NCBI GenBank assembly: GCA_000993405.1
Contig: LBWB01000012.1
Location: 37,777-101,776 of the forward strand
From: Candidatus Woesebacteria bacterium GW2011_GWB1_39_12
Lineage (GTDB): Bacteria; Patescibacteriota; Microgenomatia; UBA8517
Reading direction: 5' to 3'
Length of the DNA stretch: 64,000 bases
Shown: piece after piece, positions 8,732-54,426 of the stretch
How the letters are laid out: every line of letters begins with the position of its first letter
How positions within the stretch are numbered: the first letter of the stretch is position 1
The notes under the pieces: model-generated
Told to the model about the DNA's origin: nothing
Databases searched by the model: none
Seen by the model: only the letters and a program-made list of their open reading frames with translations
Program-made: the position numbers and the translations under genes

Positions 8732-8885
8732 AAAAAAGAGAGGGATTATCCTTCGGACGAACCTTAGGCGTGCCCTCTCATCGTGATTAAATATATTATA
8801 CCAACCCCCGCAACTCGAGTCAAAGGCAAAACTAGGCTCACCCGCATTCGCTTTATGCCCGAAAATCGGATAAAATACGGACAGA

Positions 8886-11687: not shown

Positions 11688-12194
11688 ATGATAAAGGATT
11701 TAAACTCGTTACTTTCGCTACAGGAGGTTTCTGAACTATTAGGAGTCCACCCTGAAACTTTAAGACGTTGGGACAGAGAGGACAAGTTATCAGCAATTAA
11801 AGTCAACGAGAGAGGAGATAGGAGATATCGATATGGAGATGTTATGAGAATTCTAGGAAGTTACGGAACAATAGAATACAAGGGATTTAAAATAACTCAC
11901 TACAGTCCAGGTTTTGAAATGTTTCCAGATAGGTTTGGTTCCATAGCTAAATTTGTAGTAAGTAATAATTTGGTAGTTGCAGGTTTTGCTTTTGCAGTTG
12001 CGGGTCTGAAACTTTTTGCAGAGCCAGATGTTAAATCGCAAGATCTAGAAAATCTAGCATTGTCAAAAATCAAGTATTTTATAAACCAAAAGCTAATAAA
12101 GAATTTAAAGGAATATACTTTCGAGTTTGAATCTAGGGAACAAGGATTTATACAAATTAAAAATCCAGACTGGTGGACTAAAGGAAGTTTATGA
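11688..12194 (+). CDS. HTH (excisionase/MerR-like HTH_17) DNA-binding protein with a C-terminal hydrophobic segment
   Basis: LSLQEVSELLGVHPETLRRWDRE helix-turn-helix. The ATG at 11688 is preferred over the TTG at 11649 used by the ORF track. Its stop overlaps the next gene's start (ATGA). Confidence 0.55.
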   Translation: MIKDLNSLLSLQEVSELLGVHPETLRRWDREDKLSAIKVNERGDRRYRYGDVMRILGSYGTIEYKGFKITHYSPGFEMFPDRFGSIAKFVVSNNLVVAGFAFAVAGLKLFAEPDVKSQDLENLALSKIKYFINQKLIKNLKEYTFEFESREQGFIQIKNPDWWTKGSL

Positions 12195-13114
12195 GCGAGA
12201 AGATATATGTTAGTAAAATTACGCAAGACACAAAGAACAGCGTTAAAGATTGTCTTTTGAGTTTATTTTACCGAAAGAACGATTTGATTCAATTTTTAAA
12301 AAGTTGCGGTTCCACATCTTCTGATTTGATTAATATAGGAGAATTAATGACAAAGTCCCGAATTGTTGACACTTATTTTGGCAACCTCGAACAGAGGTTA
12401 GACAATGGAACAGCTCAGTATCATAGTTTGATGAGACAAATTATTGATTGGGACGATTTTGACTCTTATTGGTTTCGGAATGGCAGTCTAGATGCAGGTT
12501 ATGCAAAAAGTAGGATTGGGCAATTGAACAAGCTTTTAGGTAAGAAAACAAAAATAGAAGAGGAGAGACTGAAATTACGCGAGAAAGAACAAGAATACGA
12601 AAAAATAAAAGCTAGGTCTCAGCTAATAACTGATTTAAGAGATAAATTTTATCGAATGTGTCAGGATAGCGATCAGACGCAAAAACGAGGTTACGAGTTA
12701 GAAGATTTACTAAATAAAATGTTTAGTTTTTTCGGCTTTGACGTTTTCAAACCATTTAAACTAAAAGGGGAGCAAATAGATGGTTCCTTTAAACACGATG
12801 GAGATAACTATATATTTGAGTCGAAATGGCAGGATAAAGAAAGTGCAGTCAATGATCTTTATGCTTTTGCTTACAAAATAGAGAGCAATTCTTTGTATCC
12901 TAGGGGTGTGTTTTTTTCTATAAATGGATACTCTGAAGATGCATTAAATAGAATAACTTACAACAAAAAGGCTCAACTAATTTTATTTGATGCCGTCGAT
13001 ATAATCGCCGTTCTCGAGGAACGTATATCATTAGTTAGTCTTCTGGAAGAAAAAATTAGATTTGCACAAACACATTCAAGAATCTATGTTAATGCAAATG
13101 ATATTCTTAAATGA
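12191..13114 (+). CDS. Mrr-like restriction endonuclease-fold (PD-(D/E)xK) protein with an N-terminal domain of unknown function
   Basis: The C-terminal region FGFDVF...GEQIDGSF...IFESKWQDK...SINGYSEDA matches the Mrr_cat D...(D/E)xK pattern. It is translationally coupled to the HTH gene. Confidence 0.55.
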   Translation: MSEKIYVSKITQDTKNSVKDCLLSLFYRKNDLIQFLKSCGSTSSDLINIGELMTKSRIVDTYFGNLEQRLDNGTAQYHSLMRQIIDWDDFDSYWFRNGSLDAGYAKSRIGQLNKLLGKKTKIEEERLKLREKEQEYEKIKARSQLITDLRDKFYRMCQDSDQTQKRGYELEDLLNKMFSFFGFDVFKPFKLKGEQIDGSFKHDGDNYIFESKWQDKESAVNDLYAFAYKIESNSLYPRGVFFSINGYSEDALNRITYNKKAQLILFDAVDIIAVLEERISLVSLLEEKIRFAQTHSRIYVNANDILK

Positions 13115-13230
13115 AAACTAATTGGATGATAAAAATTGAGAAATTTATAAATTAATGACATCTCCCGGGCGGGATGAATTGACGCCTCGGGATTTTTCTT
13201 TCCTCCTTCATCAAGACTTCGAAGGACAAG

Positions 13231-13244
13231 CAAATTTGACCCCA
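13231..13244 (+). repeat. cassette-boundary motif copy a (CAAATTTGACCCCA, short form)
   Basis: First member of an 18-copy motif family. It lies 117 nt after the Mrr-like gene stop. Confidence 0.8.
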
Positions 13245-13322
13245 CTCTTTTGGTGTCTCGTATTTAGTATTTAGGAATAATTTGCGTTGACAGTGAGTCT
13301 TTCATATAGTTTAATAGGGATT

Positions 13323-13610
13323 ATGGACGACGTTAAGAAAATGTTTAGAGTAATTGTTAACGGGCAGAGTGTAATAAAGCAAGAGTTGCTTTCGGAAATT
13401 AAGAAAGTAGACAAGAGCTTGAGCGGCAGAATTGATAGTTTAACTACAGAAATGAAAGACGGGTTTAAGAAAGTAAACAAACGTTTAGATTTAATAGGGA
13501 AATCAGTCGCCTTTCTTGAGGATGATACACCGACTAGAGAAGAACATGATAAATTAGAAAAACGCGTTTCTAAAGTAGAAAGAAAACTTCAAATTCAAGC
13601 ACCTGTTTAA
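13323..13610 (+). CDS. small coiled-coil protein, paralog copy 1 (96 aa from MDDVKKMF)
   Basis: ~90% identical to the ORF at 20532..20819, and the upstream 90 nt are also conserved. Confidence 0.55.
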   Translation: MDDVKKMFRVIVNGQSVIKQELLSEIKKVDKSLSGRIDSLTTEMKDGFKKVNKRLDLIGKSVAFLEDDTPTREEHDKLEKRVSKVERKLQIQAPV

Positions 13611-13616
13611 ATATTT

Positions 13617-13634
13617 TCTCCAAACTTGACCCCA
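13617..13634 (+). repeat. motif copy b (TCTCCAAACTTGACCCCA, short form)
   Basis: Starts 7 nt after the preceding stop codon. Confidence 0.8.
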
Positions 13635-13665
13635 TCTTTTTCTATTTTAAAATATATAATTAGTT

Positions 13666-14088
13666 ATGGTTAAGATTAGGAATTATAAAATTAGTGATTA
13701 CACGAAAGTCAAAGAAATTTTAGAAGAAGCCAGTCTTTTTGATGGAGTTTGGGATTCGGAAGAAAATTTATCAGGTAAGATTAAAGCCAATCCTGAATCA
13801 ATACTTGTTGCGGTAAAAGATGGTGTAATTGTTGGAAATGTATGTATCATTAATTACGGGTCAAAACTTCAATATCTTTTCCGTTTGGCTGTAGATAAAG
13901 ATTATCGTAATCAGGGAATAGCAACACAGTTAATTAATTCTGCAGTTGATATTGCAAGAAAAAATGGGGTAAATGAAGTGGGTTTATATGCTGATGCAGA
14001 CAATTCTAAATTGTTAGCCTATTACAGCAAAAGAGGCTTTAAAAAATCTAAGAGCAGATATTATTATATGTGGCAGGATATTAAATAA
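13666..14088 (+). CDS. GNAT family N-acetyltransferase
   Basis: Acetyl-CoA-binding motif RNQGIATQLI (R/Q-x-x-G-x-A/G) and a ~140-aa GNAT fold length. Confidence 0.75.
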   Translation: MVKIRNYKISDYTKVKEILEEASLFDGVWDSEENLSGKIKANPESILVAVKDGVIVGNVCIINYGSKLQYLFRLAVDKDYRNQGIATQLINSAVDIARKNGVNEVGLYADADNSKLLAYYSKRGFKKSKSRYYYMWQDIK

Positions 14089-14092
14089 GAAT

Positions 14093-14160
14093 CTCCAAAT
14101 CCTTCGATAAATTATAACAGTGAGTGTAGTCGAACTGCTCAGGACTATAGTTTGACCCCA
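14093..14160 (+). repeat. motif copy c, long form (CTCCAAAT-CCTTCGATAAATTATAACAGTGAGTGTAGTCGAACTGCTCAGGACTATAG-TTTGACCCCA)
   Basis: 68 nt, starting 5 nt after the GNAT stop. The palindrome halves are separated by a ~48-nt insert. Confidence 0.8.
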
Positions 14161-14236
14161 CGGTTATTTTTTTGTATCAAACTGCGGTTTCTTGACTTTG
14201 TTACTTTTGAACCTCAATATTAGATTAAGGTTAAAT

Positions 14237-14509
14237 ATGATAATAGATGATCCTAACTTTGATATTCCACTTTGGTTTTTTTATCTAATAGCTTTTATAA
14301 AAATAGCATATCTACTTTTTATAGTTTGGGTTATTTTTAACTTATTTTTGATGATTTATTGGTTAATTAGGTCGATAAAAGATAAAAGTGTTATAAAGAT
14401 AGTCAAGAAAAGGGTTAAGTATGTTTTTTTTGGAATGGCTGCTCTTTTAATTCTCTCTTTGGTAGCTTACGTTTTAGGGTTAGTCCCCAATATTAGAGAT
14501 ATTGTGTAG
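14237..14509 (+). CDS. small membrane protein (2-3 TM helices), hypothetical
   Basis: Hydrophobic 90-105-aa ORF. The start is ambiguous (ATG 14192 or 14237). Confidence 0.4.
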   Translation: MIIDDPNFDIPLWFFYLIAFIKIAYLLFIVWVIFNLFLMIYWLIRSIKDKSVIKIVKKRVKYVFFGMAALLILSLVAYVLGLVPNIRDIV

Positions 14510-14576
14510 TTCGTAGCACTTGTATATTAAAGAAAATTAAACAACATAGGGTTGGACTGAAATGTCTCAGGAAAGG

Positions 14577-14590
14577 CAAATTTGACCCCA
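14577..14590 (+). repeat. motif copy d (CAAATTTGACCCCA)
   Basis: Short form. It begins a ~300-bp segment that is duplicated at 18126..18440. Confidence 0.8.
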
Positions 14591-14673
14591 CAATTTTTTA
14601 GAGCGTTTTTTTCTACAGACTCCGCAACCCCTGTTTTGTTGACAAGCCCTGAAATAAGTTTTAAAGTTTTACC

Positions 14674-14871
14674 ATGAACGACGAAAGGGTAAGAGAGCAC
14701 CGCATCCCTCAAAACACAATTGTTGATAGGGGAGGGTATATCGGCCCAGGAGGCAGAATCAACGCCGAGCTTGTGCGGCCACCTGTTGCAGCATCGCCCA
14801 CAACAGAGATTCCACCCGCAGTTTCCCCGCAATCAACTGGAACCGAAAACCCACCACCTACAACGTATTAG
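14674..14871 (+). CDS. small Pro-rich protein, paralog copy 1 (65 aa, MNDERVREHRIP...)
   Basis: Paralog at 18221..18445 differs by an in-frame 27-nt indel and a few substitutions. The frame is conserved on the + strand, and TTGACA...TTAAAG lies upstream. Confidence 0.5.
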   Translation: MNDERVREHRIPQNTIVDRGGYIGPGGRINAELVRPPVAASPTTEIPPAVSPQSTGTENPPPTTY

Positions 14872-14883
14872 TAGTAATATTTT

Positions 14884-14951
14884 CTTCAAATCCTTCGGCA
14901 TGTTATAACAGTGAGCGTTGTCGAACTGCTCAGGACTATAGTTTGACCCCA
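14884..14951 (+). repeat. motif copy e, long form (CTTCAAAT-CCTTCGGCATGTTATAACAGTGAGCGTTGTCGAACTGCTCAGGACTATAG-TTTGACCCCA)
   Basis: 68 nt, starting 13 nt after the stop of the previous ORF. Confidence 0.8.
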
Positions 14952-14974
14952 AATTATTGATAAGAAAGTAGTGC

Positions 14975-15418
14975 ATGTTCTATACTGGTAGTGTGAAGTA
15001 TTTTAAAAACTTCTTTTTATTTTTTTTGCTAACTTTTTTAATTGCTCCGTTTCCGGAATGTATAGATGGATCCTATAGGGGGGTTAATAAATTTAAATGT
15101 TATACCGGTTTATCATTTTTACCTCCTCTAATAAATATAACTTCGATTATGAGCTTTTCATTTCTTTTTTGGTATAAATCTGATCGGGTCGTTTATAACT
15201 ATTGGCTTTGGCAAAATTTCCAGTCTTTTGTCACTTTTATTATTCTTCCCGTTTTAATGTCAGTTTTTTATACAAAATTTGTTGAAAAGTTTGATGCTAA
15301 AAAGAGAGTAATGTATATGATTTTTATTTTGATATTATTCCTGACGGTAAATACTTTAGTCTTTTATTTATTGAAGTACTATAAAATATTGCCGGCTTCG
15401 CTTTTAATTGCCGATTAG
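14975..15418 (+). CDS. hypothetical membrane protein (4 TM)
   Basis: 147 aa and hydrophobic, with no recognisable motifs. Confidence 0.45.
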   Translation: MFYTGSVKYFKNFFLFFLLTFLIAPFPECIDGSYRGVNKFKCYTGLSFLPPLINITSIMSFSFLFWYKSDRVVYNYWLWQNFQSFVTFIILPVLMSVFYTKFVEKFDAKKRVMYMIFILILFLTVNTLVFYLLKYYKILPASLLIAD

Positions 15419-15488
15419 TTTTAAGATAATTATTAATTAATAAATTGCGCCTTAGAAGTGAAATAAGTTTACACCTTGATATATCCTT

Positions 15489-15625
15489 CCAATTTGACCC
15501 CATAATCCATTCGGCTTCGCTCAGGACTATAGTCCATTCGACAAGTTATAACAGTGAGCGTTGTCGAACTGCTCAGGACATAGTCCTTCGGTTTTACTCA
15601 GAATCATAATTCTTCGATTTTTGTT
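15489..15625 (+). repeat. motif copy f, composite (short core CCAATTTGACCCCA plus ATAATCCATTCGGCTTCGCTCAGGAC, plus the GTTATAACAGTGAGCGTTGTCGAACTGCTCAGGAC insert segment at 15545..15579, plus a tail shared with 18471..18551)
   Basis: Sub-repeats are shared with copies g, h and j. Confidence 0.75.
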
Positions 15626-15644
15626 TGGGTTTGAGATATAATTA

Positions 15645-16328
15645 TTGCAAATGTATAAACTATCTCCTTCCGACTTTAAGTATTTGTATGAGGACTGTAA
15701 GCATTGCTATTACCAAAAAGTTCGGGGGGTAATTAAAGAGCTCCCCTCGATTGGTATGCCGGGGGTATTTACGAAGATGAATACTCTTTTGCAAAACACA
15801 ATTATCGGCATGGATTTACGGGAAATTAATTCCAAACTTCCCGCAGGTAAAATCGAGGTTAAAGAAGGTTTTTTGAAATCCAAAACAATTCCTCCAACCA
15901 ACGATTGCTTTATAGGAGGAAGATTTGATATTGCCTCACGCCTTGACGACGGAACTTATTCAGTCATAGATTTTAAAATTACTGATCCTACAGAAGACAA
16001 AATCCAAAAGTTCTTTCCGCAATTGCATGCTTACAAATTTGCCCTGGAAAATCCGGCGTTTGGTGAGGCGAAAAAGGTGAGCAAAATGGGAGTTATCGCA
16101 ATTAATCCTGAAGAGATATCTTTTCCTGGCGAGAAAGTAGTCTTTACGGCAAAGCCCCTATTGTTTGAGATCGAGGAAGACATGGATAGGTTTTTTGCAT
16201 TTATTTCTGAAGTATCTAAATTGGTGAATGGACCTGAACCGCCGGAAAACTCTGACAATTGCAAATGGTGTTATTATCGACTTTGTACGACAAAGGTTAA
16301 AGATAACCAAGAAGACATTCCTTTTTAA
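15645..16328 (+). CDS. Cas4-like / RecB-family PD-(D/E)xK nuclease with an Fe-S Cys cluster (standalone, no CRISPR locus)
   Basis: N-terminal SPSDFKYLYEDCKHCYY (Cas4-like YxxC motif), core GGRFDI...SVIDFKI (D...DxK), and C-terminal CKWCYYRLC (CxxCx4C). Confidence 0.6.
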   Translation: MQMYKLSPSDFKYLYEDCKHCYYQKVRGVIKELPSIGMPGVFTKMNTLLQNTIIGMDLREINSKLPAGKIEVKEGFLKSKTIPPTNDCFIGGRFDIASRLDDGTYSVIDFKITDPTEDKIQKFFPQLHAYKFALENPAFGEAKKVSKMGVIAINPEEISFPGEKVVFTAKPLLFEIEEDMDRFFAFISEVSKLVNGPEPPENSDNCKWCYYRLCTTKVKDNQEDIPF

Positions 16329-16337
16329 TAACTCTTT

Positions 16338-16393
16338 AAATTTGATCTCATAATCCATTCGGCTTCGCTCAGGACTTCGCAAATTTGACTACA
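16338..16393 (+). repeat. motif copy g, degenerate (TAAATTTGATCTCATAATCCATTCGGCTTCGCTCAGGAC ... GCAAATTTGACTACA)
   Basis: Starts 10 nt after the Cas4-like stop and shares a 27-nt block with copy f. Confidence 0.7.
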
Positions 16394-16423
16394 GAGTTAT
16401 TCGAAATTATACTAGCCCATATT

Positions 16424-17356
16424 ATGAGTGAGAGAGGAAAAGATAAAAAAATTGTAAATGCCAGAAGTACAATCGCGCATCTTGGAAGAAAAGAGCATCT
16501 TACATCCAAAGAAGAAGATAGATTAGATAAAGCTAAAAAAATTACAAGACGACAATTTTTTAAACGGGCCGGAGTTTTAACCGGTGGTGCAGCTCTAACC
16601 GTAATTGGCGGTGGTGCAGCTTATAAAATTGTAGAAAATTTGACAAAGAGTGAAAGTGATGAAGAGGTTGTTACCGGATATGAGAAGGCATTAAATTCTG
16701 TTGTCGAAGGCGATTCAGAGGGAGAAAAATTACTTGATTTTTACAGAGACAGGAAGCGGGACGCCCATATAGAGGGCGATGTTATTTATGCTGATGAAGA
16801 AGGGGACTTAGATAGTAACTTCTGGGTGGTGGTGGATAGAGGTGGAGAATTTAAATCAAATAGAGTTACGGGAATTTCAGAATATAGCCAAGATAATAAT
16901 TTATTGAGAGTTAGATCCTTTGAATCAACTGATGACTTCAAGGGAACCTTGCTCGCACATGAACTGAAACACGCTTATGACGATATTATGCAGATAGAAG
17001 GTCCGGATGAGAATTCATTTTACCGTTCTGAAGCAGAGGCATATGATTTTGAATTTCGATTATTAGATAATGTTTCGGGGAAGCGTTTTATAGGTGTACT
17101 TCAGGAACAGTCACGGTCTATTGAACCGGGAAAGTTTAGGGGTAGATTGTCAGATGAAAATTTTATTTCCTTGAATGATTTATTTCTTGACGCTGTAAGC
17201 AAAGAAGAATTAAATCATAGAGTAGTAGTGTATACAATCGCACTAAATTTTGCCGCCATCGGATTAAGATCTGATATCGCCGATGTTGCACAACAAAAAG
17301 CGGAATATATTCGTGCGATTTATTCTCAAGATATCCCAATATTACCCCTTGATTAA
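16424..17356 (+). CDS. Tat-signal secreted HExxH metallopeptidase-like protein
   Basis: Twin-arginine motif TRRQFFKRAG followed by a hydrophobic h-region, and HELKH (HExxH). The ATG at 16424 is preferred over the TTG at 16385. Confidence 0.5.
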   Translation: MSERGKDKKIVNARSTIAHLGRKEHLTSKEEDRLDKAKKITRRQFFKRAGVLTGGAALTVIGGGAAYKIVENLTKSESDEEVVTGYEKALNSVVEGDSEGEKLLDFYRDRKRDAHIEGDVIYADEEGDLDSNFWVVVDRGGEFKSNRVTGISEYSQDNNLLRVRSFESTDDFKGTLLAHELKHAYDDIMQIEGPDENSFYRSEAEAYDFEFRLLDNVSGKRFIGVLQEQSRSIEPGKFRGRLSDENFISLNDLFLDAVSKEELNHRVVVYTIALNFAAIGLRSDIADVAQQKAEYIRAIYSQDIPILPLD

Positions 17357-17448
17357 CAATTTAATGCCATTTTGAAAGGAACTTGACTTAATGTGGCATT
17401 CTTATGTCACCTTCAAAGTATGATACAAGTAAGTAAATCAGGATTTTT

Positions 17449-17506
17449 CTCCAAATTCGACACTTAGACGTGACTAAGTGCAAGCCCATAATCCATTCGA
17501 CAAGCT
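17449..17506 (+). repeat. motif copy h, degenerate (CTCCAAATTCGACA ... CCCATAATCCATTCGACAAGCT)
   Basis: Lies in the convergent gap between the metallopeptidase gene and the minus-strand HD gene. Confidence 0.6.
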
Positions 17507-17517
17507 CCGAAATATTT

Positions 17518-18075
17518 TTAAATTTTCTTTGCTCTTTTCAAATCTCTTTTCTCAAGTTCCTTAAATATCTTGCTGCCGTTTTTGGATTTAAAAACAGGTT
17601 TATAATTTTCAAAAAAAGTATCCAAAACTTTTGTATCTTGTGTTTCTTCTTCAAATACTTCTCCCTGAAGTAAGGTTTCAAGCTTATCGGCTTCCCTCGC
17701 AATTTGGGATTCTTTAGTCTTCATAGAATTAAATTCATTGAATAAATTCATATATTCTTTTTTAATTACGGAAGGTAGTTCGTTGAAAACAGTCCTTTTT
17801 GCTTTCTCTTCCATTAATCGCTTCTTGTCATAATTACCGGAGGGGGGAATAACGTCATCCATTTTTGCCATCACCCAATCGTGAACTAATAATATCTTGA
17901 CTACTTTCTCTGAATTTACCTTCTCAAGTTTTGCCAAGTAGAGACCAATGCACATTGCCCCAAAAATGTGAGAGGCCAGATCATCCGAATCCATTCCTTT
18001 GTAAATCCAACCCTGGCGCTTGGTCTTCTTTAAAACTGAAATGATTGAGTACAAGTCCTTTATAGTTTTCATCAT
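17518..18075 (-). CDS. HD-domain phosphohydrolase (YfbR-like 5'-deoxynucleotidase family)
   Basis: H...HD...D pattern: SHIFGAMCIG, LLVHDWVMAKMDD, READKLETLLQ. Confidence 0.6.
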   Translation of the reverse strand: MMKTIKDLYSIISVLKKTKRQGWIYKGMDSDDLASHIFGAMCIGLYLAKLEKVNSEKVVKILLVHDWVMAKMDDVIPPSGNYDKKRLMEEKAKRTVFNELPSVIKKEYMNLFNEFNSMKTKESQIAREADKLETLLQGEVFEEETQDTKVLDTFFENYKPVFKSKNGSKIFKELEKRDLKRAKKI

Positions 18076-18120
18076 ACAATTTTAGCACTTGTAGATTCAT
18101 TTTTCGATAAACTCCAGTTT

Positions 18121-18139
18121 CTTCAAATTTGACCCTGCA
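18121..18139 (+). repeat. motif copy i (CTTCAAATTTGACCCTGCA)
   Basis: Start of the duplicated segment (copy 2). Confidence 0.8.
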
Positions 18140-18220
18140 ATTTTTTAGAGCGTTTTTTTCTACAAACTCCGCAACCCCTGTTTTGTTGACAAGCCCTGAA
18201 ATAAGTTTTAAAGTTTTACA

Positions 18221-18445
18221 ATGAACGACGAAAGGGTAGGAGAGCACCGCATTCCTAAAAACACAATTGTTGATAGGGGAGGGTATATCGGCGCAGGAGG
18301 CAGAATCAACGCCGAGCTTGTGCGACCACCCGAAGTCGTTCCTCCTATAAATCCGCCTGTCGCAGCATCGCTCACAACAGAGACGCCACCCGCTGTTCCC
18401 CCGCAACTATCTGGAAACGAAAACCCACCACTCACAACGTATTAG
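18221..18445 (+). CDS. small Pro-rich protein, paralog copy 2 (74 aa)
   Basis: See 14674..14871. A 9-aa insertion (EVVPPINPP) preserves the frame. Confidence 0.5.
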   Translation: MNDERVGEHRIPKNTIVDRGGYIGAGGRINAELVRPPEVVPPINPPVAASLTTETPPAVPPQLSGNENPPLTTY

Positions 18446-18457
18446 TAGTAATATTTT

Positions 18458-18551
18458 CTTCAAATCCTTCGGCAAGTTATAACAGTGAGCGTTGTCGAAC
18501 TGCTCAGGACTATAGTCCTTCGGTTTTACTCAGGATCACGATTCTTCGACT
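18458..18551 (+). repeat. motif copy j, long form variant (CTTCAAAT-CCTTCGGCAAGTTATAACAGTGAGCGTTGTCGAACTGCTCAGGACTATAG-TCCTTCGG...), with a tail shared with copy f
   Basis: Starts 13 nt after the stop. It is ~95% identical to 15545..15625 and lacks the terminal TTTGACCCCA. Confidence 0.75.
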
Positions 18552-18583
18552 TTTATTTATTGAAGCAGTATAATCGCCATAGA

Positions 18584-18976
18584 ATGTTGGAATCAAAATC
18601 GTCCATAAATCAGGGACTGGCAGAAATATATAAAGAGGCATGTCAAAACCTTGGTAGGTATTTAGACGGTTTGAATCATGGTGTTGCAAGGTCGTATAAA
18701 GGACGTATGAGGCAAGAAACGGTACGACAAGAGGTTGAAGAGTACGGGCAGGAATCTCTTTACCATACTTTCGAAACACCGTACGTTCAGGGATATGGTT
18801 TGGTTGTCTCGACTTTAAATATTTTAGAAAGGTTAAATGTTCATACAAATACCGATCTTTTAGGATTAGATATAGAGAACGCCGAAAAGCAAAACAGAGA
18901 CTTTGGCGATAAAAAAGTAGAATTGGTTGGCCTTTTCAAAGAAATAGTCAGAGCACAAAAAGACTTAGAAGAGTAG
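18584..18976 (+). CDS. hypothetical protein (130 aa from MLESKSS)
   Basis: ATG at 18584 with TATAAT 9 nt upstream. The ORF-track GTG start at 18485 lies inside the repeat and is rejected. Confidence 0.45.
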   Translation: MLESKSSINQGLAEIYKEACQNLGRYLDGLNHGVARSYKGRMRQETVRQEVEEYGQESLYHTFETPYVQGYGLVVSTLNILERLNVHTNTDLLGLDIENAEKQNRDFGDKKVELVGLFKEIVRAQKDLEE

Positions 18977-18982
18977 TATTAT

Positions 18983-18999
18983 CTCCAAATTTGACCCCA
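18983..18999 (+). repeat. motif copy k (CTCCAAATTTGACCCCA)
   Basis: Starts 7 nt after the stop. Confidence 0.85.
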
Positions 19000-19065
19000 C
19001 ATTATTAGTATTAAATATTGAGTATATCGTAGTTATGGAATGTTGTGGGTGATATACTTTAGCCT

Positions 19066-19632
19066 ATGAAGAGGGCAATAATTGTTCACTGTTGGGAAGG
19101 GTATCCTAAGTATTGTTGGTATCCTCAAACTAAAAAGGAGTTAGAAGAGGAAGGTTTTGAAGTAGAAGTTCCAGAGATGCCTGAAACTGCAAATCCTAAA
19201 CTTTCTGGGTGGCTTTCCAAGCTTAAAGATATAGTTCAAACTCCTGATAAAAATCTCTTTTTAGTCGGGCACAGTTTAGGCTGTATAACCATAATGAGAT
19301 ATTTGGAAAGCTTAAAAGAGGGCAAGAAAGTGGGAGGAGTAGTTTTTGTGGCGGGATTTACGGATGATTTGGGTTATAAGGAACTCACAAACTTTTTCAC
19401 TGAAACGATTGATTTTGAAAAGATTAGAGAAAAATCTGATAGTTTTTATGCAATAAATTCCGATGACGACCCATACGTTTCTCTTAAATACGCTGATATT
19501 TTGAAAGAAAAACTCGGAGCGATATCGATAATAAAGCATAATATGAAGCATTTCTCAGGACCAATAGACAATGAAGACAGCTGTCTTTCTATTCCGGAAG
19601 TTACAAAGTCCATCATAAAGATGGCGAGGTGA
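19066..19632 (+). CDS. RBBP9/YdeN-like alpha/beta serine hydrolase
   Basis: ~190 aa with IIVHCWEG at the N-terminus and the nucleophile elbow GHSLG. Confidence 0.7.
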   Translation: MKRAIIVHCWEGYPKYCWYPQTKKELEEEGFEVEVPEMPETANPKLSGWLSKLKDIVQTPDKNLFLVGHSLGCITIMRYLESLKEGKKVGGVVFVAGFTDDLGYKELTNFFTETIDFEKIREKSDSFYAINSDDDPYVSLKYADILKEKLGAISIIKHNMKHFSGPIDNEDSCLSIPEVTKSIIKMAR

Positions 19633-19634
19633 TT

Positions 19635-19651
19635 CTTCAAATTTGACCCCA
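19635..19651 (+). repeat. motif copy l (CTTCAAATTTGACCCCA)
   Basis: Starts 3 nt after the stop. Confidence 0.85.
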
Positions 19652-19696
19652 TATTGCTTCACCAGAATAAGGCGATTATAGCTCAACTGGATGAGT

Positions 19697-19930
19697 TTAT
19701 ACTATTGGTCGATGGGGTAACCTGGCACGAGTGGCTCTCGATACGGCATTGGGGTTAGTTGCATTACCAACTGCACCTATAACTTCATCTACACTGAAAG
19801 GTTCGGGAGTTAAGGCTTGAATTACATCTAACTTGGCTAGCTCTGCGGAATCTCTCGGGTCTTCCGGTTGAACGTGTTGGTATCTTTGGATTACTTCTCT
19901 TGTAAGAGGAGCTTCAATTCTTAAAGTCAT
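19697..19930 (-). CDS. hypothetical 77-aa protein (minus strand, locally higher GC)
   Basis: The ORF sits in a GC-richer patch. It is the only minus-strand ORF in this gap and has no motifs. Confidence 0.3.
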   Translation of the reverse strand: MTLRIEAPLTREVIQRYQHVQPEDPRDSAELAKLDVIQALTPEPFSVDEVIGAVGNATNPNAVSRATRARLPHRPIV

Positions 19931-19966
19931 TAGTTGTTCGTATTATAAGGATAGAATTAAGATTTT

Positions 19967-19981
19967 GCAAATTTGACCCCC
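19967..19981 (+). repeat. motif copy m (GCAAATTTGACCCCC)
   Basis: Short form. Confidence 0.8.
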
Positions 19982-20036
19982 GACCGTAGAAATTAAACGA
20001 TAGTTTCGTTTGAATATTCTATGTTAAGATTAACTA

Positions 20037-20402
20037 ATGAAACGCAGATTGCCGTATATTATTATTTTTATTTTATTTATAGCAATTTTAATTTTTCTGT
20101 ATTTTTTATTTAGTATGAATTATGTTCCTAAGAATAAGGAACTGAAATTTACGAATTCTCCACTTAATTATTGTTCGTCCAATTTTGATTGTTATATTTA
20201 CAGTTATGATTCATGCCAGTGTCCGACCAGTGTTGTTGTGAATAAGAAATATAAAGATTCCCCTGAGCTGTATAATAATTTTCCTATTACTCCCTCCGAA
20301 GAATGTCTTATTGCTTGTACTCCTGGAAGCTCTTTTCCCAAAAATGCTTATTGTGTTAATGGTAAGTGCGGTATTGAATACGAGAAATTGTTTGAAAAAT
20401 GA
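20037..20402 (+). CDS. small secreted Cys-rich protein (hypothetical)
   Basis: N-terminal signal/TM helix and 10 Cys in the mature part. Confidence 0.5.
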   Translation: MKRRLPYIIIFILFIAILIFLYFLFSMNYVPKNKELKFTNSPLNYCSSNFDCYIYSYDSCQCPTSVVVNKKYKDSPELYNNFPITPSEECLIACTPGSSFPKNAYCVNGKCGIEYEKLFEK

Positions 20403-20444
20403 CTTAAGATTTGTAACAATTGAGATTATTCATCCGTGAAATAT

Positions 20445-20461
20445 CCTTCAAATTTGACCCT
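20445..20461 (+). repeat. motif copy n (CCTTCAAATTTGACCCT)
   Basis: Begins the duplicated coiled-coil cassette (20445..20822, similar to 13231..13613). Confidence 0.8.
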
Positions 20462-20531
20462 ACTTTTGGTATCTAGTATTTAGGAATAATTTGCGTTGAC
20501 GGTGAGTCTTTCATATAGTTTAATAGGGATT

Positions 20532-20819
20532 ATGGACGACGTTAAGAAAATGTTTAGAGTAATTGTTAACGGGCAGAGTGCAATAAAGCAAGAGTTGCTT
20601 TCGGAAATTAAGAAAGTAGACAAGAGCTTGAGCGGCAGAATTGATAGTTTAACTACAGAAATGAAAGAAGGGTTTAAGAAAGTAAACAAACATCTTGATA
20701 TGATTGGAAAGAGTGTTGCTTTTCTTGAAGACGACACACCGACCTGGGAGGAACATGATGAATTAGAAAAGCGGGTTACTAAAGTTGAGAAAAAACTTCA
20801 GATTCAAGCACATATTTAA
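20532..20819 (+). CDS. small coiled-coil protein, paralog copy 2
   Basis: See 13323..13610. Confidence 0.55.
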   Translation: MDDVKKMFRVIVNGQSAIKQELLSEIKKVDKSLSGRIDSLTTEMKEGFKKVNKHLDMIGKSVAFLEDDTPTWEEHDELEKRVTKVEKKLQIQAHI

Positions 20820-20826
20820 ATATGCT

Positions 20827-20869
20827 CTCCAAATCCTTCAGTATTATTCAGGACTGTAGTTTGACCACA
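20827..20869 (+). repeat. motif copy o, intermediate form (CTCCAAAT-CCTTCAGTATTATTCAGGACTGTAG-TTTGACCACA)
   Basis: Starts 8 nt after the stop and has a shortened insert. Confidence 0.7.
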
Positions 20870-20928
20870 AAACCCCCAGCCGTTTCTTTCACGCGCCCTA
20901 TTATGAGAGTTGTTGAAACTATTGGTGA

Positions 20929-21226
20929 AGTTATTTAATCGCGTCTCGAACCGCCTCCTCCTCTGTTGTCGTTTCCGCCCGAAGATCTCTCTTCTCGCGG
21001 TCTTGCTTCGTTAACAACTATTTTTCTTCCGCCAAGCTCCGTACCGTTTAACTCTTTTATTGCTTTATCTGCATTTGCATCGTCTGCAAACTCAACAAAA
21101 GCAAACCCCTTTCCTTGATTCGTAAACTTGTCGGTAATAACGTCAGCCGTAGTAACTTCTCCTATTTTCGAAAAAAGTTCCAGAAGCCCGTGAAACCTAT
21201 ACCTGAAGTATCGATTTAGTGCCTAT
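20929..21226 (-). pseudogene. RRM-type (RNP-1/RNP-2) RNA-binding protein gene, apparently 5'-truncated with no in-frame start
   Basis: The minus-strand translation ...GLLELFSKIGEVTTADVITDKFTNQGKGFAFVEFADDANADKAIKELNGTELGGRKIVVNEARPREERSSGGNDNRGGGGSRRD* contains RNP-1 (KGFAFVEF). The RNP-2 region is garbled, and no ATG/GTG/TTG precedes the in-frame stop. Confidence 0.5.
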
Positions 21227-21360
21227 CAGAATGGATTCGTAACCTTAAGCTGTATTATATCTTAATTGGTTCCATAATTCCTAATAATCGGTTGTAGTAG
21301 AAATTTAACCCCACATAAAATGCTTCATTCTTCCTAAAGTTTTTTTAAGCCGATTTCCAG

Positions 21361-21374
21361 CAAATTTGACATTA
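21361..21374 (+). repeat. motif copy p, degenerate (CAAATTTGACATTA)
   Basis: Short form with the CCCCA tail lost. Confidence 0.6.
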
Positions 21375-21420
21375 GTTGATTTATTTCTATATAATGACTT
21401 TTTATATAAAAGTTTCAGTT

Positions 21421-22164
21421 ATGAAAGGTAAATTAGTTTTATTAACATCTCTCCTTACTTCATTTATTCTTCTTTTTTATGTCGCAACCGGTGTTAGGGC
21501 TGAAAATCCAAAAGAACAAGTTGGTCGCGGACCATTAACCAAGATTACCTTTATTCATTACAAGAAAGCGTTTGCCAAACCGCCTTGGGCAGGCGGGAAC
21601 AACACAACAGCGGTAAAGTGTTACGGTTTTTTGGCAAGAGGTGCAAAATGGAAAATCCAGGAGCCGTATTATGTAAACCCAACAGACTCCGGTCTAAGTT
21701 CCTCATTTGTCGAGAATGCAGTTACCACTGGAGTTGGTGAATGGGAGAATTATGCAGGAAACGTGTTCGGAAACGGAAACGTTGATGCGAGCGCAAGCTA
21801 TAACGAGGGCAATCTCGATGGAGTAAATACGGCTTCGTTCGGTTCATATCCTGATAACGCTGTCATTGCCGTAACCAACGTTTGGGGATATTTCGGCGGT
21901 CCACCTCAAACCAGAGAATTGGTCGAATGGGATATGCTTTTTAACAACTCTTCGGAATGGACCTGGGGAGATGGACTAGGTGATCCGACACTGATGGACG
22001 TACAAAATATTGCTACTCATGAACTCGGACATAGTTTCGGCATGGCCGATCTTTATGATACGTCGTGTAACTTGGAAACAATGTATGGTTACTCAACCGA
22101 AGGCGAGACTTCAAAACGGGATTTAAATTCTGGTGATATTCAAGGAATCCAAGAGTTATACTAA
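21421..22164 (+). CDS. secreted metzincin-like zinc metalloprotease
   Basis: Signal peptide, HELGHSFGMAD (HExxHxxGxxD), and a Met-turn candidate (ETMYGYS). Confidence 0.65.
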   Translation: MKGKLVLLTSLLTSFILLFYVATGVRAENPKEQVGRGPLTKITFIHYKKAFAKPPWAGGNNTTAVKCYGFLARGAKWKIQEPYYVNPTDSGLSSSFVENAVTTGVGEWENYAGNVFGNGNVDASASYNEGNLDGVNTASFGSYPDNAVIAVTNVWGYFGGPPQTRELVEWDMLFNNSSEWTWGDGLGDPTLMDVQNIATHELGHSFGMADLYDTSCNLETMYGYSTEGETSKRDLNSGDIQGIQELY

Positions 22165-22210
22165 AGAACTTCTACAAATTTCACTCCAAGGAAAAATTAA
22201 TAGTTAATTA

Positions 22211-22477
22211 TCATATACAAGTTGGAACTTTATCTCCCGGCAAAGTTAAGCAGATGAAGTAACAATTAGCCAGACAAGCGCCTCGAGGACACCCCAGTTC
22301 TGCCCCTTTTATACATATGGGATATTTGTTTTTGCAACTCGTTCGACACAAGTTTTTTCTTACTAATAAAATAGTTGTTACTAAAAAAGTTAATAAGGTA
22401 AGGATAAATATTATAATTAAAAAAATTTTATATATCTTCACAACCTTAATATTAGAAGCGATAGAGAATAAATTCAA
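22211..22477 (-). CDS. small Cys-rich membrane protein (hypothetical)
   Basis: 88 aa, with an N-terminal TM helix and 9 Cys. Confidence 0.3.
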   Translation of the reverse strand: MNLFSIASNIKVVKIYKIFLIIIFILTLLTFLVTTILLVRKNLCRTSCKNKYPICIKGAELGCPRGACLANCYFICLTLPGDKVPTCI

Positions 22478-22481
22478 CTTT

Positions 22482-22498
22482 CTTCAAAATTGACCCCG
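22482..22498 (+). repeat. motif copy q (CTTCAAAATTGACCCCG)
   Basis: Short form, upstream of BrnT. Confidence 0.8.
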
Positions 22499-22526
22499 TT
22501 GTTTGATATGGCAAAAGGTATGGTAA

Positions 22527-22826
22527 TATGGTAATATCCTTACAGATACGACTTTTGAGTGGGATGAGGATAAAAATACTAAGAATCTGAAGAAGCATGG
22601 TGTCGACTTTGAAACTGCCCAATACGCTTTTCTAGACGAAAGACGTGTAATTGCAAAAGATTTAGCACATAGTAAAGAAGAAGAACGGTATTATTGTTTC
22701 GGTAAAGTAAAAGGAGGTGTAATAACTGTCCGGTTTACCTATCGAGATAATCGTATCCGGATAATCGGAGCAGATTATTGGAGAAGGGGCAGAAAAATAT
22801 ATGAAAAAGAAAATAAAATATTCTAA
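22527..22826 (+). CDS. brnT: BrnT-like toxin (DUF497 ribonuclease fold); the ORF lacks a canonical in-frame start codon
   Basis: Translation TTFEWDEDKNTKNLKKHGVDFETAQYAFLDERRVIAKDLAHSKEEERYYCFGKVKGGVITVRFTYRDNRIRIIGADYWRR... matches the BrnT family. It overlaps brnA by 26 nt. An 8-bp tandem duplication, TGGTAATATGGTAATA, lies at the 5' end. Confidence 0.55.
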   Translation, partial: YGNILTDTTFEWDEDKNTKNLKKHGVDFETAQYAFLDERRVIAKDLAHSKEEERYYCFGKVKGGVITVRFTYRDNRIRIIGADYWRRGRKIYEKENKIF

Positions 22827-23028
22827 CGAGCCTGTTGAGGCAAAGGTAATCGATGATTTTCTACCCAGCCCGGAAGAGTTGGTTTTAAAAGAAAAGAAAA
22901 CCAAAATAACGCTTACTCTTACAGAAAAAAGTCTCAAATTCTTTAAAGACAGTGCCAAGAAACAGGGAGCATCTTATCAAGCAATGATCAGAAGACTAAT
23001 TGATTATTACGTAGCAAATCAAATTTAA
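22801..23028 (+). CDS. brnA: BrnA-like antitoxin (RHH/CopG-like)
   Basis: DDFLPSPEEL...KITLTLTEKSLKFFKDSAKKQGASYQAMIRRLIDYY matches the BrnA pattern. It is downstream of and overlapping BrnT. Confidence 0.65.
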   Translation: MKKKIKYSNEPVEAKVIDDFLPSPEELVLKEKKTKITLTLTEKSLKFFKDSAKKQGASYQAMIRRLIDYYVANQI

Positions 23029-23055
23029 AACACTTCTATCTGGGCATTTTTCTTT

Positions 23056-23082
23056 CCTTCAAAGTGCACAAATCTGACCCCA
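23056..23082 (+). repeat. motif copy r (CCTTCAAAGTGCACAAATCTGACCCCA)
   Basis: Last copy. It starts ~27 nt after the brnA stop. Confidence 0.7.
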
Positions 23083-23177
23083 CAAAGAAGTTATTGTACA
23101 GACCATTCGTTGTTACGAGTAACCGAAATTTGTGAAAAAAACTTGGAAATATGTCCGGAAAGGGATAGAATTAGTCT

Positions 23178-52584: not shown

Positions 52585-54426
52585 ATGAAAATGGGGAAAG
52601 AGATGACGAATACTGAGATTGCAGAGCTTCTGAGGGCTGTTGCTGCTGCCTATCAGCTTCAAGACGAAAAAAAGAATCGCTTTAAGATAATTGCATATCA
52701 AAGAGCGGCTGATGCGGTTGAACATGAGTCTAGCGAACTTAAAGATCTTTGGGATGAAGGTAAATTAGACGAAGTACCGGGGGTTGGCGAAAGTATTGCG
52801 AAGCATCTTGACGAACTGTTCCGAACCGGTAAATCAAAACATTTTGAAGAAATTATGAAAGGATTGCCTTCTTCCGTGTTTGACCTTATGAAAATTCCGG
52901 GTATTGGGGTAAAAACAGCTTACAAATTAGTTGAAAAGTTTAAGTCTAAGATTTCAGCAAAAGATCCAATAGGAGATCTTGAAAAGATAGCCAAAAAAGG
53001 AAAAATCGCTATATTAGAAGGTTTTGGAGAAGATTCTGAAAAAGCGATTCTTAATTCAATAAAGGAAGTTAAAGGCCGTGAAGTTAGACTCCTTCTTCCC
53101 TACGCTCAGAAACTTGCGGATGAAATTATATCCTGGCTAAAAGGATCAAAAGATATAATCCGAGCTGATGCTCTCGGCAGTTTAAGAAGGAGAGCTTCTA
53201 CCGTGGGCGACGTTGATATTTCTGTTTCTTCTCTCAATGCTTCCGCAGCAATTGAGCACTTTACCAACTATCCGAACGCAACTAGAATATTGGAAAAAGG
53301 GGAAAGAACTGCCTCAATTATCGTTCCAGGCAATAAACAGGTTGATTTGATGGTTGAAAAGCCAGAAAGCTATGGTTCACTGCTTCAACACTTTACCGGA
53401 AGTAAACATCATAATATTGCGCTTCGAACCTTGGCGCTAAAGAAGGGGTATTCGGTATCCGATTATGGGATTTATGTATTAGACAAAAAAAGGAAATCAC
53501 AGAAAGCACTGAAAAATTCTCGGAAGTCACTGAGAAAGTTTTCGACAGAAGAGGAGTTTTATAAATTTTTGGGAATGGGATGGATACCGCCTGAATTAAG
53601 GGAAGACAGTGGAGAAATTGAAAGTGCCCTTCGCTCCGCTCAGGGTAAACTAGGCGGATTACCTAAACTTGTGGAGCTCAATGATGTTAAGGCAGATTTA
53701 CAGATTCACTCCGACTTTGATATTGAAACAAGCCACGACTTGGGAGAATCCTCAATGCAAGATTTAGTTGAAAAAGCAAGCGCTCTTGGATATGAATATA
53801 TAGCATTTACAGAGCATAACCCAAGTCATAGTAAACACACAGAGGATGAGATCGTGGAAATATTGAAAAAGAAGCGTGAAATAATTGATAAAATAAATTA
53901 CTCATATAATCCCAAAGCTAATAGAGTATTAAAAGTATACAACAGCCTGGAAATAGATATTTTGCCGGATGGAAGATTACCTGTCCCGGATAAAGGCTTG
54001 GAAACTCTAGACTTTGCTCTCGTTGCTATTCATTCAAGTTTTAAACTTGCTAAATACAATATGACACGGAGAGTTCTTTCAGCTTTATCTCAGCCTAAGG
54101 TGAAAATATTTGCTCATCCGACGGCAAGAAAATTGGGAGAAAGAGAAGGAATTGAACTGGACTGGGAAGCGTTATTTGATTTCTGTCTAAAGAACGATAA
54201 GTGGCTAGAAATAAATGCCGATCCGATGAGGCTTGATCTTCCTGATTTTTTGGTTCATGAAGCTACAAAATTAGGAGTTAAACTAACACTAGGAACAGAT
54301 GCGCATCATTTTGAGCATATGAATAACATGGAGTTTGCTGTGTCTGTTGCAAGACGGGGTTGGGCAGAAAAGAAAGATATTGTAAATACAAGGTCATTTG
54401 CAGAATTTGAAAAGATGCTAGAATAA
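52585..54426 (+). CDS. polX: family X DNA polymerase (Pol beta-like) with a C-terminal PHP phosphoesterase domain
   Basis: HhH (IPGIGVKTAYKL), nucleotidyltransferase GSLRRRASTVGDVDI, and PHP motifs (LQIHSDFD..., EHN, LGTDAHH). Confidence 0.75.
   Translation: MKMGKEMTNTEIAELLRAVAAAYQLQDEKKNRFKIIAYQRAADAVEHESSELKDLWDEGKLDEVPGVGESIAKHLDELFRTGKSKHFEEIMKGLPSSVFDLMKIPGIGVKTAYKLVEKFKSKISAKDPIGDLEKIAKKGKIAILEGFGEDSEKAILNSIKEVKGREVRLLLPYAQKLADEIISWLKGSKDIIRADALGSLRRRASTVGDVDISVSSLNASAAIEHFTNYPNATRILEKGERTASIIVPGNKQVDLMVEKPESYGSLLQHFTGSKHHNIALRTLALKKGYSVSDYGIYVLDKKRKSQKALKNSRKSLRKFSTEEEFYKFLGMGWIPPELREDSGEIESALRSAQGKLGGLPKLVELNDVKADLQIHSDFDIETSHDLGESSMQDLVEKASALGYEYIAFTEHNPSHSKHTEDEIVEILKKKREIIDKINYSYNPKANRVLKVYNSLEIDILPDGRLPVPDKGLETLDFALVAIHSSFKLAKYNMTRRVLSALSQPKVKIFAHPTARKLGEREGIELDWEALFDFCLKNDKWLEINADPMRLDLPDFLVHEATKLGVKLTLGTDAHHFEHMNNMEFAVSVARRGWAEKKDIVNTRSFAEFEKMLE

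Follow-up and report, generated by a model that had tools for sequence, protein, structure and literature searches.

The 64,000-nucleotide stretch of contig LBWB01000012.1 of Candidatus Woesebacteria bacterium GW2011_GWB1_39_12 (assembly GCA_000993405.1), hereafter the window, carries a cassette array on its + strand (13231..23082), in which about 20 junction sites of one orientation (TCTyCAAA|TTTGACCCC) lie between short genes with their own promoters. The subject of this analysis is the long form of the junction site, in which additional sequence stands between the two halves. We tentatively interpret the long form as an ordinary cassette-junction site whose centre holds one to three copies of short mosaic repeats, referred to here as modules, which occur across the lineage and resemble repetitive extragenic palindromic (REP) or BOX elements. 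The integron-like array represents an integrase-less cassette system that is undescribed in the literature searched.

The first-pass annotation described the site as a perfect 10-bp palindrome followed by CCCCA and split in four copies by an insert of about 48 nt. Both features are genuine and exceed chance: the window has four exact copies of the palindrome TCAAATTTGA against 0.42 expected, three of them inside the array, and four copies of the 35-nt core of the insert against 0.00 expected. The 14-mer CAAATTTGACCCCA, with up to three mismatches allowed, gave 25 matches in the window against 9.9 expected, 18 of which lie on the + strand at 13231-23082. The proposed boundary of the site did not hold, however, as the conserved unit is asymmetric and larger than the palindrome. 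The alignment of 59 sites from the window and four related arrays limited the information content to about 17 nt, TCTyCAAATTTGACCCC, in which symmetry is limited to TCAAA|TTTGA; the arms outside it, TTCTYC and CCCC, do not form an inverted pair, and the TTTGACCCC half is the most conserved part. In the same alignment, 11-bp inverted arms around a 6-8-bp spacer, as in Xer/dif-type sites, were absent, and there was no information content 15-30 nt downstream of TTGAC, so that no -10 box lies at a fixed spacing. The identity of the site as a promoter was rejected on this ground, separate promoters being located further downstream in the cassettes. The variant ATTCGAC forms the right half of real junctions (17452; 13708 in the related locus L013, loci in related DNA being given by such numbers). 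About 15 of the 20 junctions in the window are only about 17 nt long, and about 75% have no centre at all.

Although the insert is present in four copies, all on the + strand, it stands between TCAAA and TTTGA in only two of them. Long form 1 (14092..14160), directly after the stop codon of the GNAT gene, consists of TCTCCAAA, module b1 (14100-14150), which is the most diverged copy, and TTTGACCCCA, while long form 2 (14883..14951), at the end of the cassette of a 65-aa open reading frame (ORF), consists of TCTTCAAA, module b2 (14891-14941) and TTTGACCCCA. The third copy belongs to a + strand tandem run of three modules (15506..15609), composed of the short a1 (15506-15532), b3 of the 48-nt type (15533-15583) and the short c1 (15584-15609); it is preceded by a complete short-type site CCTTCCAATTTGACCCCA (15485..15502, + strand) and followed by the promoter TTCGAT-N18-TATAAT (15610-15642) and the PD-(D/E)XK nuclease gene (15651-16328). 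The fourth copy (18458..18541) has the left half-site TCTTCAAA, b4 (18465-18515) and the short c2 (18516-18541) without TTTGA; it is followed by the promoter TTCGAC-N18-TATAAT (18542-18574) and duplicates the cassette end at 14577-14941. The palindrome reported within the insert, GTTATAAC, was confirmed in three copies, whereas the copy at 14111 has ATTATAAC. The site at 20827, which had been regarded as an intermediate, is a filled site (20826..20869, + strand) made of TCTCCAAA, a 20-nt short module with CTGTAG (20834-20859) and TTTGACCACA. This module is a typical short member of the family (TCCTTCAGTATTATTCAGGA + CTGTAG), and the 20834 site equals the frame of the long insert minus its nested inverted core. 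Two further + strand junctions carry related sequences. The first junction of the array (13204..13244), located after an intrinsic terminator, combines a hairpin-type module TCCTTCATCAAGACTTCGAAGGA with CAAGCAAA and TTTGACCCCA and is 90% identical to L017 11028-11087, and a partial module TCCATTCGACAAGCTCCGAAA (17492..17512) lies beside the variant site TCTCCAAATTCGAC (17448-17461).

The direct reading of all junctions in the window and the related arrays provided both the module inventory and a junction grammar: a T-rich TCTYC(AAA) element, then zero to three modules, each with its linker, and then either TTTGACCCC or the promoter element TTCTTCGAC-N18-TATAAT. The module frame is TCC(A)TTCGRY-(3-36 nt)-CTCAGGA, 19-50 nt long and followed by a linker of 5-10 nt that ends in AAA, TAG or TAA (CTATAG, CTGTAG, TTGTAG, TTATAG, TAATAA, TCATAA, CTTCGCAAA and CATTCTGAAA). 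Short modules, e.g., TCCATTCGGCTTCGCTCAGGA, TCCTTCGGTTTTACTCAGGA and TCCTTCGATAAACTCAGGA, the last of which is identical in L001 and L013, have 19-21 nt and form an imperfect 19-21-bp palindrome, TCCTnnG-N5-7-CnnAGGA, with a weak 4-bp stem. The 48-nt insert, module b, is a composite in which the short-module frame surrounds an inverted copy of the second family motif, GTTCGACAACGCTCAC; its reverse complement contains GTTCGACAACGCTCAC and matches + strand modules of L041 (GTTCGACCACGCTCAC, 15/16) and of L001 and L062 (13/15). This nesting accounts for the TTCGRY/GTCGAA inverted repeat (TTCGAC/GTCGAA) and for the GTTATAAC palindrome. The 6-bp stem of module b is perfect or has one-sided changes (to G-T or T-G) in seven b-type sequences, among which direct reading and a MAFFT alignment of imperfect register revealed no compensatory changes, the near-invariance of the stem leaving this comparison without power.

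Among the species representatives of GTDB, the 48-nt core was found in one other genome, Ca. Woesebacteria RIFCSPLOWO2_01_FULL_39_23 (L001), and in the window as well as in that species module b was found only at array junctions. Over 62-69 nt that include its flanks, module b shows 95% identity between the window and L001, as compared with 69-82% for the cassette genes common to both. Diverged relatives of module b are present in L028, L039 and L041, and one inverted pair of modules was observed in L039 (3756/3821).

The duplicated and homologous cassettes showed which cassette the modules ride with. The two duplicated ends at 14840-14990 and 18414-18570 are identical through ...TTTTCTTCAAATCC...CTCAGGACTATAGT, after which TTGACCCCA... 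in one stands against CCTTCGGTTTT... in the other and the divergence is complete. As the flanks diverge to the right of the module, the module belongs to the 3' end of the upstream cassette, and the exchange point is placed immediately 5' of TTTGAC. The coiled-coil cassette ends empty in the copy at 13560-13634 (site 13621) and filled in the copy at 20770-20869 (20826); its homologues have a short end in L013 and L017, module b in L001 and a diverged relative of b in L028. Likewise, the leader TTTGACCCCATAA|TTCTTCGAC-N18-TATAAT occurs uninterrupted in L017 and L013, with one module inside in L017 and with three in the window, where a second leader has the same promoter after two modules and without the TTTGACCCC half. 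The same cassettes and leaders are thus found empty or differently filled, which indicates that the module content changes independently of the genes.

Modules also occur outside arrays, namely ahead of the PD-(D/E)XK gene, in other spacers and within ORFs. When metagenomes were scanned with the PD-(D/E)XK cassette protein, 80 loci at 71-87% identity were obtained, most of them without an array, which makes this nuclease a widespread Woesebacteria gene. Of the 11 strict module matches, six are found in the 400 nt that precede the PD-(D/E)XK start, in loci that are mostly array-free. With a slightly relaxed pattern, 32 distinct short modules were detected in 933 kb of Woesebacteria DNA against about two expected, in a sample biased to arrays and to the PD-(D/E)XK locus; 28 of them are on the + strand (28:4), and at least 23 are located in the non-coding part, which is about 12% of the sequence. 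Upstream of the PD-(D/E)XK gene, tandem units that we call decoy units are present in L039 (1613-1800), L041 (779-960) and L073 (9925-10005) and, truncated, in L043 and L046. Their order is an extended -10 box, ATG with the first 28 nt of the gene (...GAYTTCA), a module and the complement of gene bases 13-30. Such units could give rise to upstream ORFs of 16-30 aa or to a long hairpin around the next promoter. Bases 23-30 of the gene itself read CTTCAAAT, which is the left half-site of the array, in several homologues, e.g., L039 and L077, while the copy in the window has CTTTAAGT.

Three module copies lie inside ORFs, all in sense orientation. The copy in the window, the module-like CCCTTCGCTCCGCTCAGGGTAAAC (53627..53650, + strand), is in frame in the PolX/PHP gene (52585-54426), in the segment (ALRSAQGKLGG) that links the polymerase thumb to the PHP domain. 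Of the two homologues compared (L114 and L115), the closest (78% identity) lacks 18 nt exactly there, whereas the other (71%) has the insertion with GCTCAGGGTAAAC unchanged. Module-like 19-mers were also observed within ORFs at L093 16138 and L095 9655 (- strand), in a GlyRS-like gene (...EDPSTNSGQ...) and a 287-aa ORF. No site is found near the PolX copy (53627) or near the module at L039 3821. The first-pass annotation named a dispersed REP-like element as the alternative to its own view, and this description appears to apply to the module family as a whole, which is found outside arrays and inside ORFs, and not to its 48-nt member, which was found only at array junctions.

Under the interpretation that we tentatively favour, the modules would be small, non-autonomous, strand-specific insertional or duplicative repeats comparable to REPs, to the bacterial interspersed mosaic elements (BIMEs) built from them or to the pneumococcal BOX elements. 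They would tend to land or expand beside ...TTCA(AA) or ...TAG ends, the TCAAA|TTTGA centre being a favoured spot, and would split the palindrome while the TTTGACCCC half is kept. The closest parallels are the REP/BIME elements of Enterobacteria, mobilised by Y1 (HUH) transposases of the RAYT (REP-associated tyrosine transposase) group, and the REPINs. The modules share with them the character of short (20-50 nt), imperfectly palindromic extragenic repeats located after stop codons, as well as the mosaic, tandem and nested arrangement with short linkers. Many linkers end in TAG and others in TAA or AAA, and the (G/A)TAG immediately 5' of the next module recalls what we take to be the GTAG tetranucleotide of REPs, which we regard as a lead only. 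Unlike REP/BIME elements, the modules have very weak stems, form mostly tandem-direct and not inverted pairs, have a low apparent copy number, are concentrated at one kind of site and are accompanied by no RAYT/IS200-like gene in 1.25 Mb of related DNA. The likeness to the boxA-boxB(n)-boxC elements of Streptococcus pneumoniae consists in conserved ends, variable tandem internal modules (0-3 here), an intergenic location and a lack of coding capacity. The 'ends' here, in contrast, are the halves of a 17-bp junction site that is mostly module-free, and modules also occur without ends.

The first-pass annotation also compared the insert with a miniature inverted-repeat transposable element (MITE), which agrees better with the data than its comparison with attC. 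The empty and filled sites and the copies outside arrays agree with an insertion, but the inverted termini of the modules do not extend beyond TCC(T)...(A)GGA, there is no consistent target-site duplication (the flanks being CAAA vs ATAG, with CATAA vs CATAA in one context only), and the loci examined contain no ORF resembling an insertion sequence (IS) that could be the parent. For this reason, the MITE comparison applies only loosely.

The same lack of inverted repeats and target-site duplications weighs against the modules as mobile repeats, as do several other observations. No presence/absence polymorphism of modules was found among 10 near-identical contigs of the same population, and within the 64-kb window every module except the PolX copy lies inside the 10-kb array. 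When XerD, IntI1, gamma-delta resolvase and the TnpA proteins of IS200 and IS608 served as tblastn queries against 1.25 Mb of related DNA, the only matches were Xer-like genes in array-free loci, and no RAYT/IS200-like gene was found. A cis-acting function under selection would account equally well for the strong conservation and for the bias towards the sense strand. Moreover, modules begin with TCC(A)TTCGAC, a sequence similar both to the right half-site (TTTGAC/TTCGAC) and to codons 5-8 of the PD-(D/E)XK gene, so that they could be by-products of recombination and not independent elements.

This last resemblance leads to the first of two serious rival explanations, although we consider it rather unlikely: the modules would be gene-less mini-cassettes, or by-products of recombination, made and moved by the site-specific recombinase that shuffles the gene cassettes and having degenerate half-sites as their ends. 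The start (A)TTCGAC would correspond to the right half and the end ...CAAA or ...TAG to the left half, and a long form would be a short site with integrated empty cassettes. Exactly such a unit is present in the window at 16332..16393 (+ strand), where two sites 43 nt apart surround one short module, a2 (16354-16383), without a gene. Between its junction sites, L013 has four to five copies of a cassette of about 126 nt that contains no gene (TTTGACCCCTGCCAAATTTTCTA...TTCTCACATTCTTGAGAATGTTGGAATAA...) (9508-9640, 10287-10413, 12029-12155, 13566-13708 and 14452-14579). The ATTCGAC right halves of real junctions described above point in the same direction, and the linkers CATTCTGAAA and CTTCGCAAA mimic the left half. 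Recombination at the nuclease gene is likewise suggested by the decoy duplications, which end at CTTCA within it, and by its bases 23-30, which equal the left half-site in several homologues. However, in the true long forms the motif resembling the right half is displaced by TCC, and TTCAAA|TCCTTCG is not a canonical site. The modules with no site nearby (PolX and L039) also do not fit, and the 48-nt insert is more strongly conserved than the genes, although scars of recombination would be expected to decay.

According to the second serious rival, which appears unlikely, the modules are selected cis-acting elements recruited to cassette boundaries and to the PD-(D/E)XK leader, either operators of dimeric proteins or RNA leader or 3' untranslated region elements acting as an insulator, a terminator or a control of leaderless-mRNA translation. 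An imperfect palindrome of 19-21 bp has the typical size of an operator, and in L077, L039, L041 and L073 extended -10 boxes follow the modules at a distance of 9-15 nt. The complement of gene bases 13-30 in the decoy units could pair with the 5' end of the mRNA, and the changes between loci are compatible with G-U pairs; the b-c module junction scores as a weak terminator, and both the 28:4 orientation and the high conservation would be expected of a functional element. On the other hand, the next start codon lies anywhere from 34 to 88 nt beyond the 48-nt insert, the downstream genes are unrelated, and copies lie inside ORFs. The folds are no more stable than those of shuffled sequences, the stems are invariant or show one-sided changes without compensation, and no match to Rfam was obtained.

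It is also conceivable, though in our opinion improbable, that sites and modules together constitute a new cassette-exchange system of the Candidate Phyla Radiation (CPR) unrelated to integrons, in which cassettes with their own promoters and mini-cassettes are moved at a TTCA(AA)|TTTGAC crossover by an enzyme supplied in trans. The enzyme could possibly be a chromosomal Xer-like recombinase or the conserved Cas4-like PD-(D/E)XK nuclease, whose gene has the same sequence at its 5' end as well as the decoy duplications. No recombinase was found in the 64-kb window by Pfam scans of its 49 ORFs or in the gene tables of the arrays examined, and tblastn with IntI1 and XerD gave no match in the array-bearing loci. 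A XerD-like tyrosine recombinase gene was observed near the PD-(D/E)XK gene in L031 (1549-2439), L036 (5786-6667), L038, L024 (9110-9991), L025 (12453-13334) and L055, all of them array-free Woesebacteria loci. The match to E. coli XerD is 33-37% over the full length in four loci and only a short C-terminal one in L038 and L055; the gene is convergent to the PD-(D/E)XK gene and directly adjacent to it in two or three loci.

The comparison with attC sites made in the first-pass annotation corresponds to the last explanation, that of a site folding as single-stranded DNA with paired half-sites (R''/R'-like), the insert being a variable arm and the enzyme an integron-type integrase. In topology alone the comparison is justified: inverted TCAAA...TTTGA half-sites surround a centre of variable length at the 3' end of the cassette, in one orientation whatever the strand of the gene. 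The top strand is, moreover, the lagging-strand template, and the putative 5' arm of the hairpin (TCAAA-TCC-TTCGAC) resembles the short duplex site. Every attC feature that could be tested failed. Pairs of RYYYAAC and GTTRRRY cores separated by 43-127 nt were absent from both strands of 13001-23200, where about two were expected, and all seven GTTRRRY motifs are more than 15 nt away from any junction. The DNA folds of the long forms on both strands had minimum free energies of -3 to -7 kcal/mol with z-scores of -1.0 to +1.1, no better than shuffled sequences, and the RNA folds had z-scores of -0.4 to +1.8. Secondary structure prediction for the single strands thus gave no stable hairpin; the half-sites pair in no minimum-energy or centroid structure, the short forms (18116-18141) do not fold, and the roughly 75% of junctions without a centre could not do so. 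No integrase was found within the 64 kb or in the eight other array loci. Given the absent cores, the weak folds and a conservation of sequence and not of structure, the resemblance to attC is only positional, and the folded-site model, which we regard as very improbable, is largely excluded.

In a broader sense, the array shares with integrons and with clusters of attC sites lacking an integrase (CALINs) the short cassettes of one orientation with the site at the 3' end, an orientation that is kept when the ORF is reversed, the duplication and reshuffling of cassettes between related genomes, the non-coding cassettes and the lack of an integrase nearby, as in CALINs. It differs in that the site is a 17-bp sequence-conserved motif of the duplex type without R and L boxes, while attC is a structure-conserved hairpin of 57-141 nt, and in that the Woesebacteria cassettes have their own promoters and no IntI. 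Like the pdif modules, or arrays of integrative mobile elements exploiting Xer (IMEX), the array consists of toxin-antitoxin and accessory gene modules bounded by short repeated sites, with the recombinase presumably encoded elsewhere in the genome. In contrast to pdif, the 11-6-11 dif architecture is missing from the site, the sites do not alternate but are direct repeats throughout, and a Xer-like gene was observed only next to the PD-(D/E)XK gene in array-free genomes. The in-frame copies in the PolX linker and in two other ORFs recall the Rickettsia palindromic elements, small repeats within protein genes, although the latter are clearly palindromic and 100-150 bp long, as compared with the 18-24 nt of the three cases found here.

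The window is a chromosomal segment of Candidatus Woesebacteria (CPR), containing ftsA, ftsZ, parB and PolX genes and the genes of isoleucyl-tRNA synthetase and GatCAB, and the named homologues of the cassette proteins also come from Woesebacteria. The array genes encode a GNAT protein, the PD-(D/E)XK nuclease, an HD hydrolase, a Ser hydrolase, an M10 peptidase, a BrnT/A-like pair and small hypothetical proteins. Sites follow the stop codons by 0-15 nt and precede the next start codon by 37-92 nt. Three array genes are on the - strand (17518-18075 and 19697-19930 among the intervals), while the flanking sites remain on the + strand, which disfavours a transcript-level signal and favours a DNA site acting at the level of the array. 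Many cassette genes have their own promoter with a -10 box 5-8 nt ahead of the ATG, a distance that suggests leaderless mRNAs. The portable promoter ATAATTCTTCGAC-N18-TATAAT, found in the window (15610-15642 and 18542-18574), in L013 (13720-13752) and in L017 (13367-13399 and 15725-15757), heads unrelated cassettes, i.e., those of the PD-(D/E)XK nuclease, a 163-aa ORF, a 299-aa ORF and GmrSD. Two cassettes have been duplicated within the array (13231-13634 and 20449-20869; 14577-14951 and 18124-18525), and in both cases the similarity begins and stops at sites. The array was reproduced, colinear and with 99.8-100% identity, in 10 independent assemblies of the same population and is therefore no assembly artefact. 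The GC skew is positive across the window except for two small local dips. The + strand is the lagging-strand template here, which fits either single-strand-specific insertion or plain co-orientation with transcription.

The 5' side of the array is flanked by a type IIG restriction-modification gene, a MerR/HTH_17 protein and an unassigned 307-aa protein, and the 3' side by a cupin gene and the isoleucyl-tRNA synthetase gene; searches of PDB sequences with the PD-(D/E)XK protein and the 307-aa protein gave no match. Arrays with the same site are present in L013 (GCA_001792545.1, about 20 sites), L017 (13 sites), L001, L015, L028, L062, L076 and L099, and restriction or defence genes adjoin every array examined. 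One array segment of L013 encloses the essential gene of the Obg GTPase. The L017 array occupies the same chromosomal slot as that of the window (YkuD, a 208-aa protein and NYN upstream), with another restriction-modification system and another cassette order; the Ser hydrolase, BrnT/A and coiled-coil cassettes are common to both, at 77-82% identity. A shared slot with reshuffled cassettes is the behaviour of a cassette platform. The literature searched on CPR integrons, cassettes or the site sequence contained nothing relevant to these arrays or to the site.

Several other identities of the site or the modules were considered and rejected. Duplication of a tRNA or tmRNA 3' end, to which the T-loop-like TTCAAAT might point, has the wrong spacing to CCA, and ARAGORN and Rfam are silent there. 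In Rfam, only four tRNAs reached the gathering threshold in the window and nothing relevant was obtained at E<=10 in 12900-23400, which argues against self-cleaving ribozymes and other known RNAs. Intrinsic terminators are not enriched at cassette ends, with five terminator-like sites in 10.8 kb against 8.2 expected and only two b-c module junctions qualifying. The + strand sites beside the - strand genes mentioned above speak against a transcript-level element. In viral contigs, the 17-mer gave 11 single matches (chance or coding, without arrays), the 48-nt core none and the gapped pattern one chance match within a gene. Serine or tyrosine crossover logic at the module junctions was also rejected, since direct reading found the expected common overlap sequences in neither junction.

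Three further features of the region were recorded. A conserved non-coding stretch ATATTATACCAACCC...GTCAAAGGYAAAA lies 3' of the NYN-domain gene in the window (8790-8850) and in L017 (4905-4950). The genes after it differ, being type IIG restriction-modification in the window and a 140-aa ORF in L017, and the stretch may be a fixed promoter or the entry point of the variable region. The gene of an RRM_1 RNA-binding protein (- strand) has about 90-100 nt fewer at 21182-21191 of the window than at L003 17526-17617, the contigs of other samples being otherwise identical; the shortfall reflects either a deletion variant or a difference in assembly. The isoleucyl-tRNA synthetase (23646-26611) is split into two overlapping ORFs (651 and 354 aa), while the near-identical L003 and L004 encode one product of 996 aa; the split is probably due to a frameshift or a sequencing error near 25547-25601.

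The CPR, or Patescibacteria, have tiny genomes, and their exchange of accessory genes is little understood. One Woesebacteria clade has a recurrent, strain-variable cassette array beside restriction-modification and defence genes, with a compact 17-bp site and no integrase nearby, and mosaic mini-repeats colonise its junction sites, the region ahead of a conserved nuclease gene and even coding sequence. The long form is a sub-feature of moderate interest; more intriguing is the array, together with its link to the PD-(D/E)XK nuclease locus. If the sites are recombination sites, they would represent a second, independent route to an integron-like gene-capture platform, and if the modules are mobile, they would be, within the literature searched, the first REP/BOX-like repeats for the CPR. 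The sites and modules are sequence tags for tracing gene flow in groundwater CPR populations.

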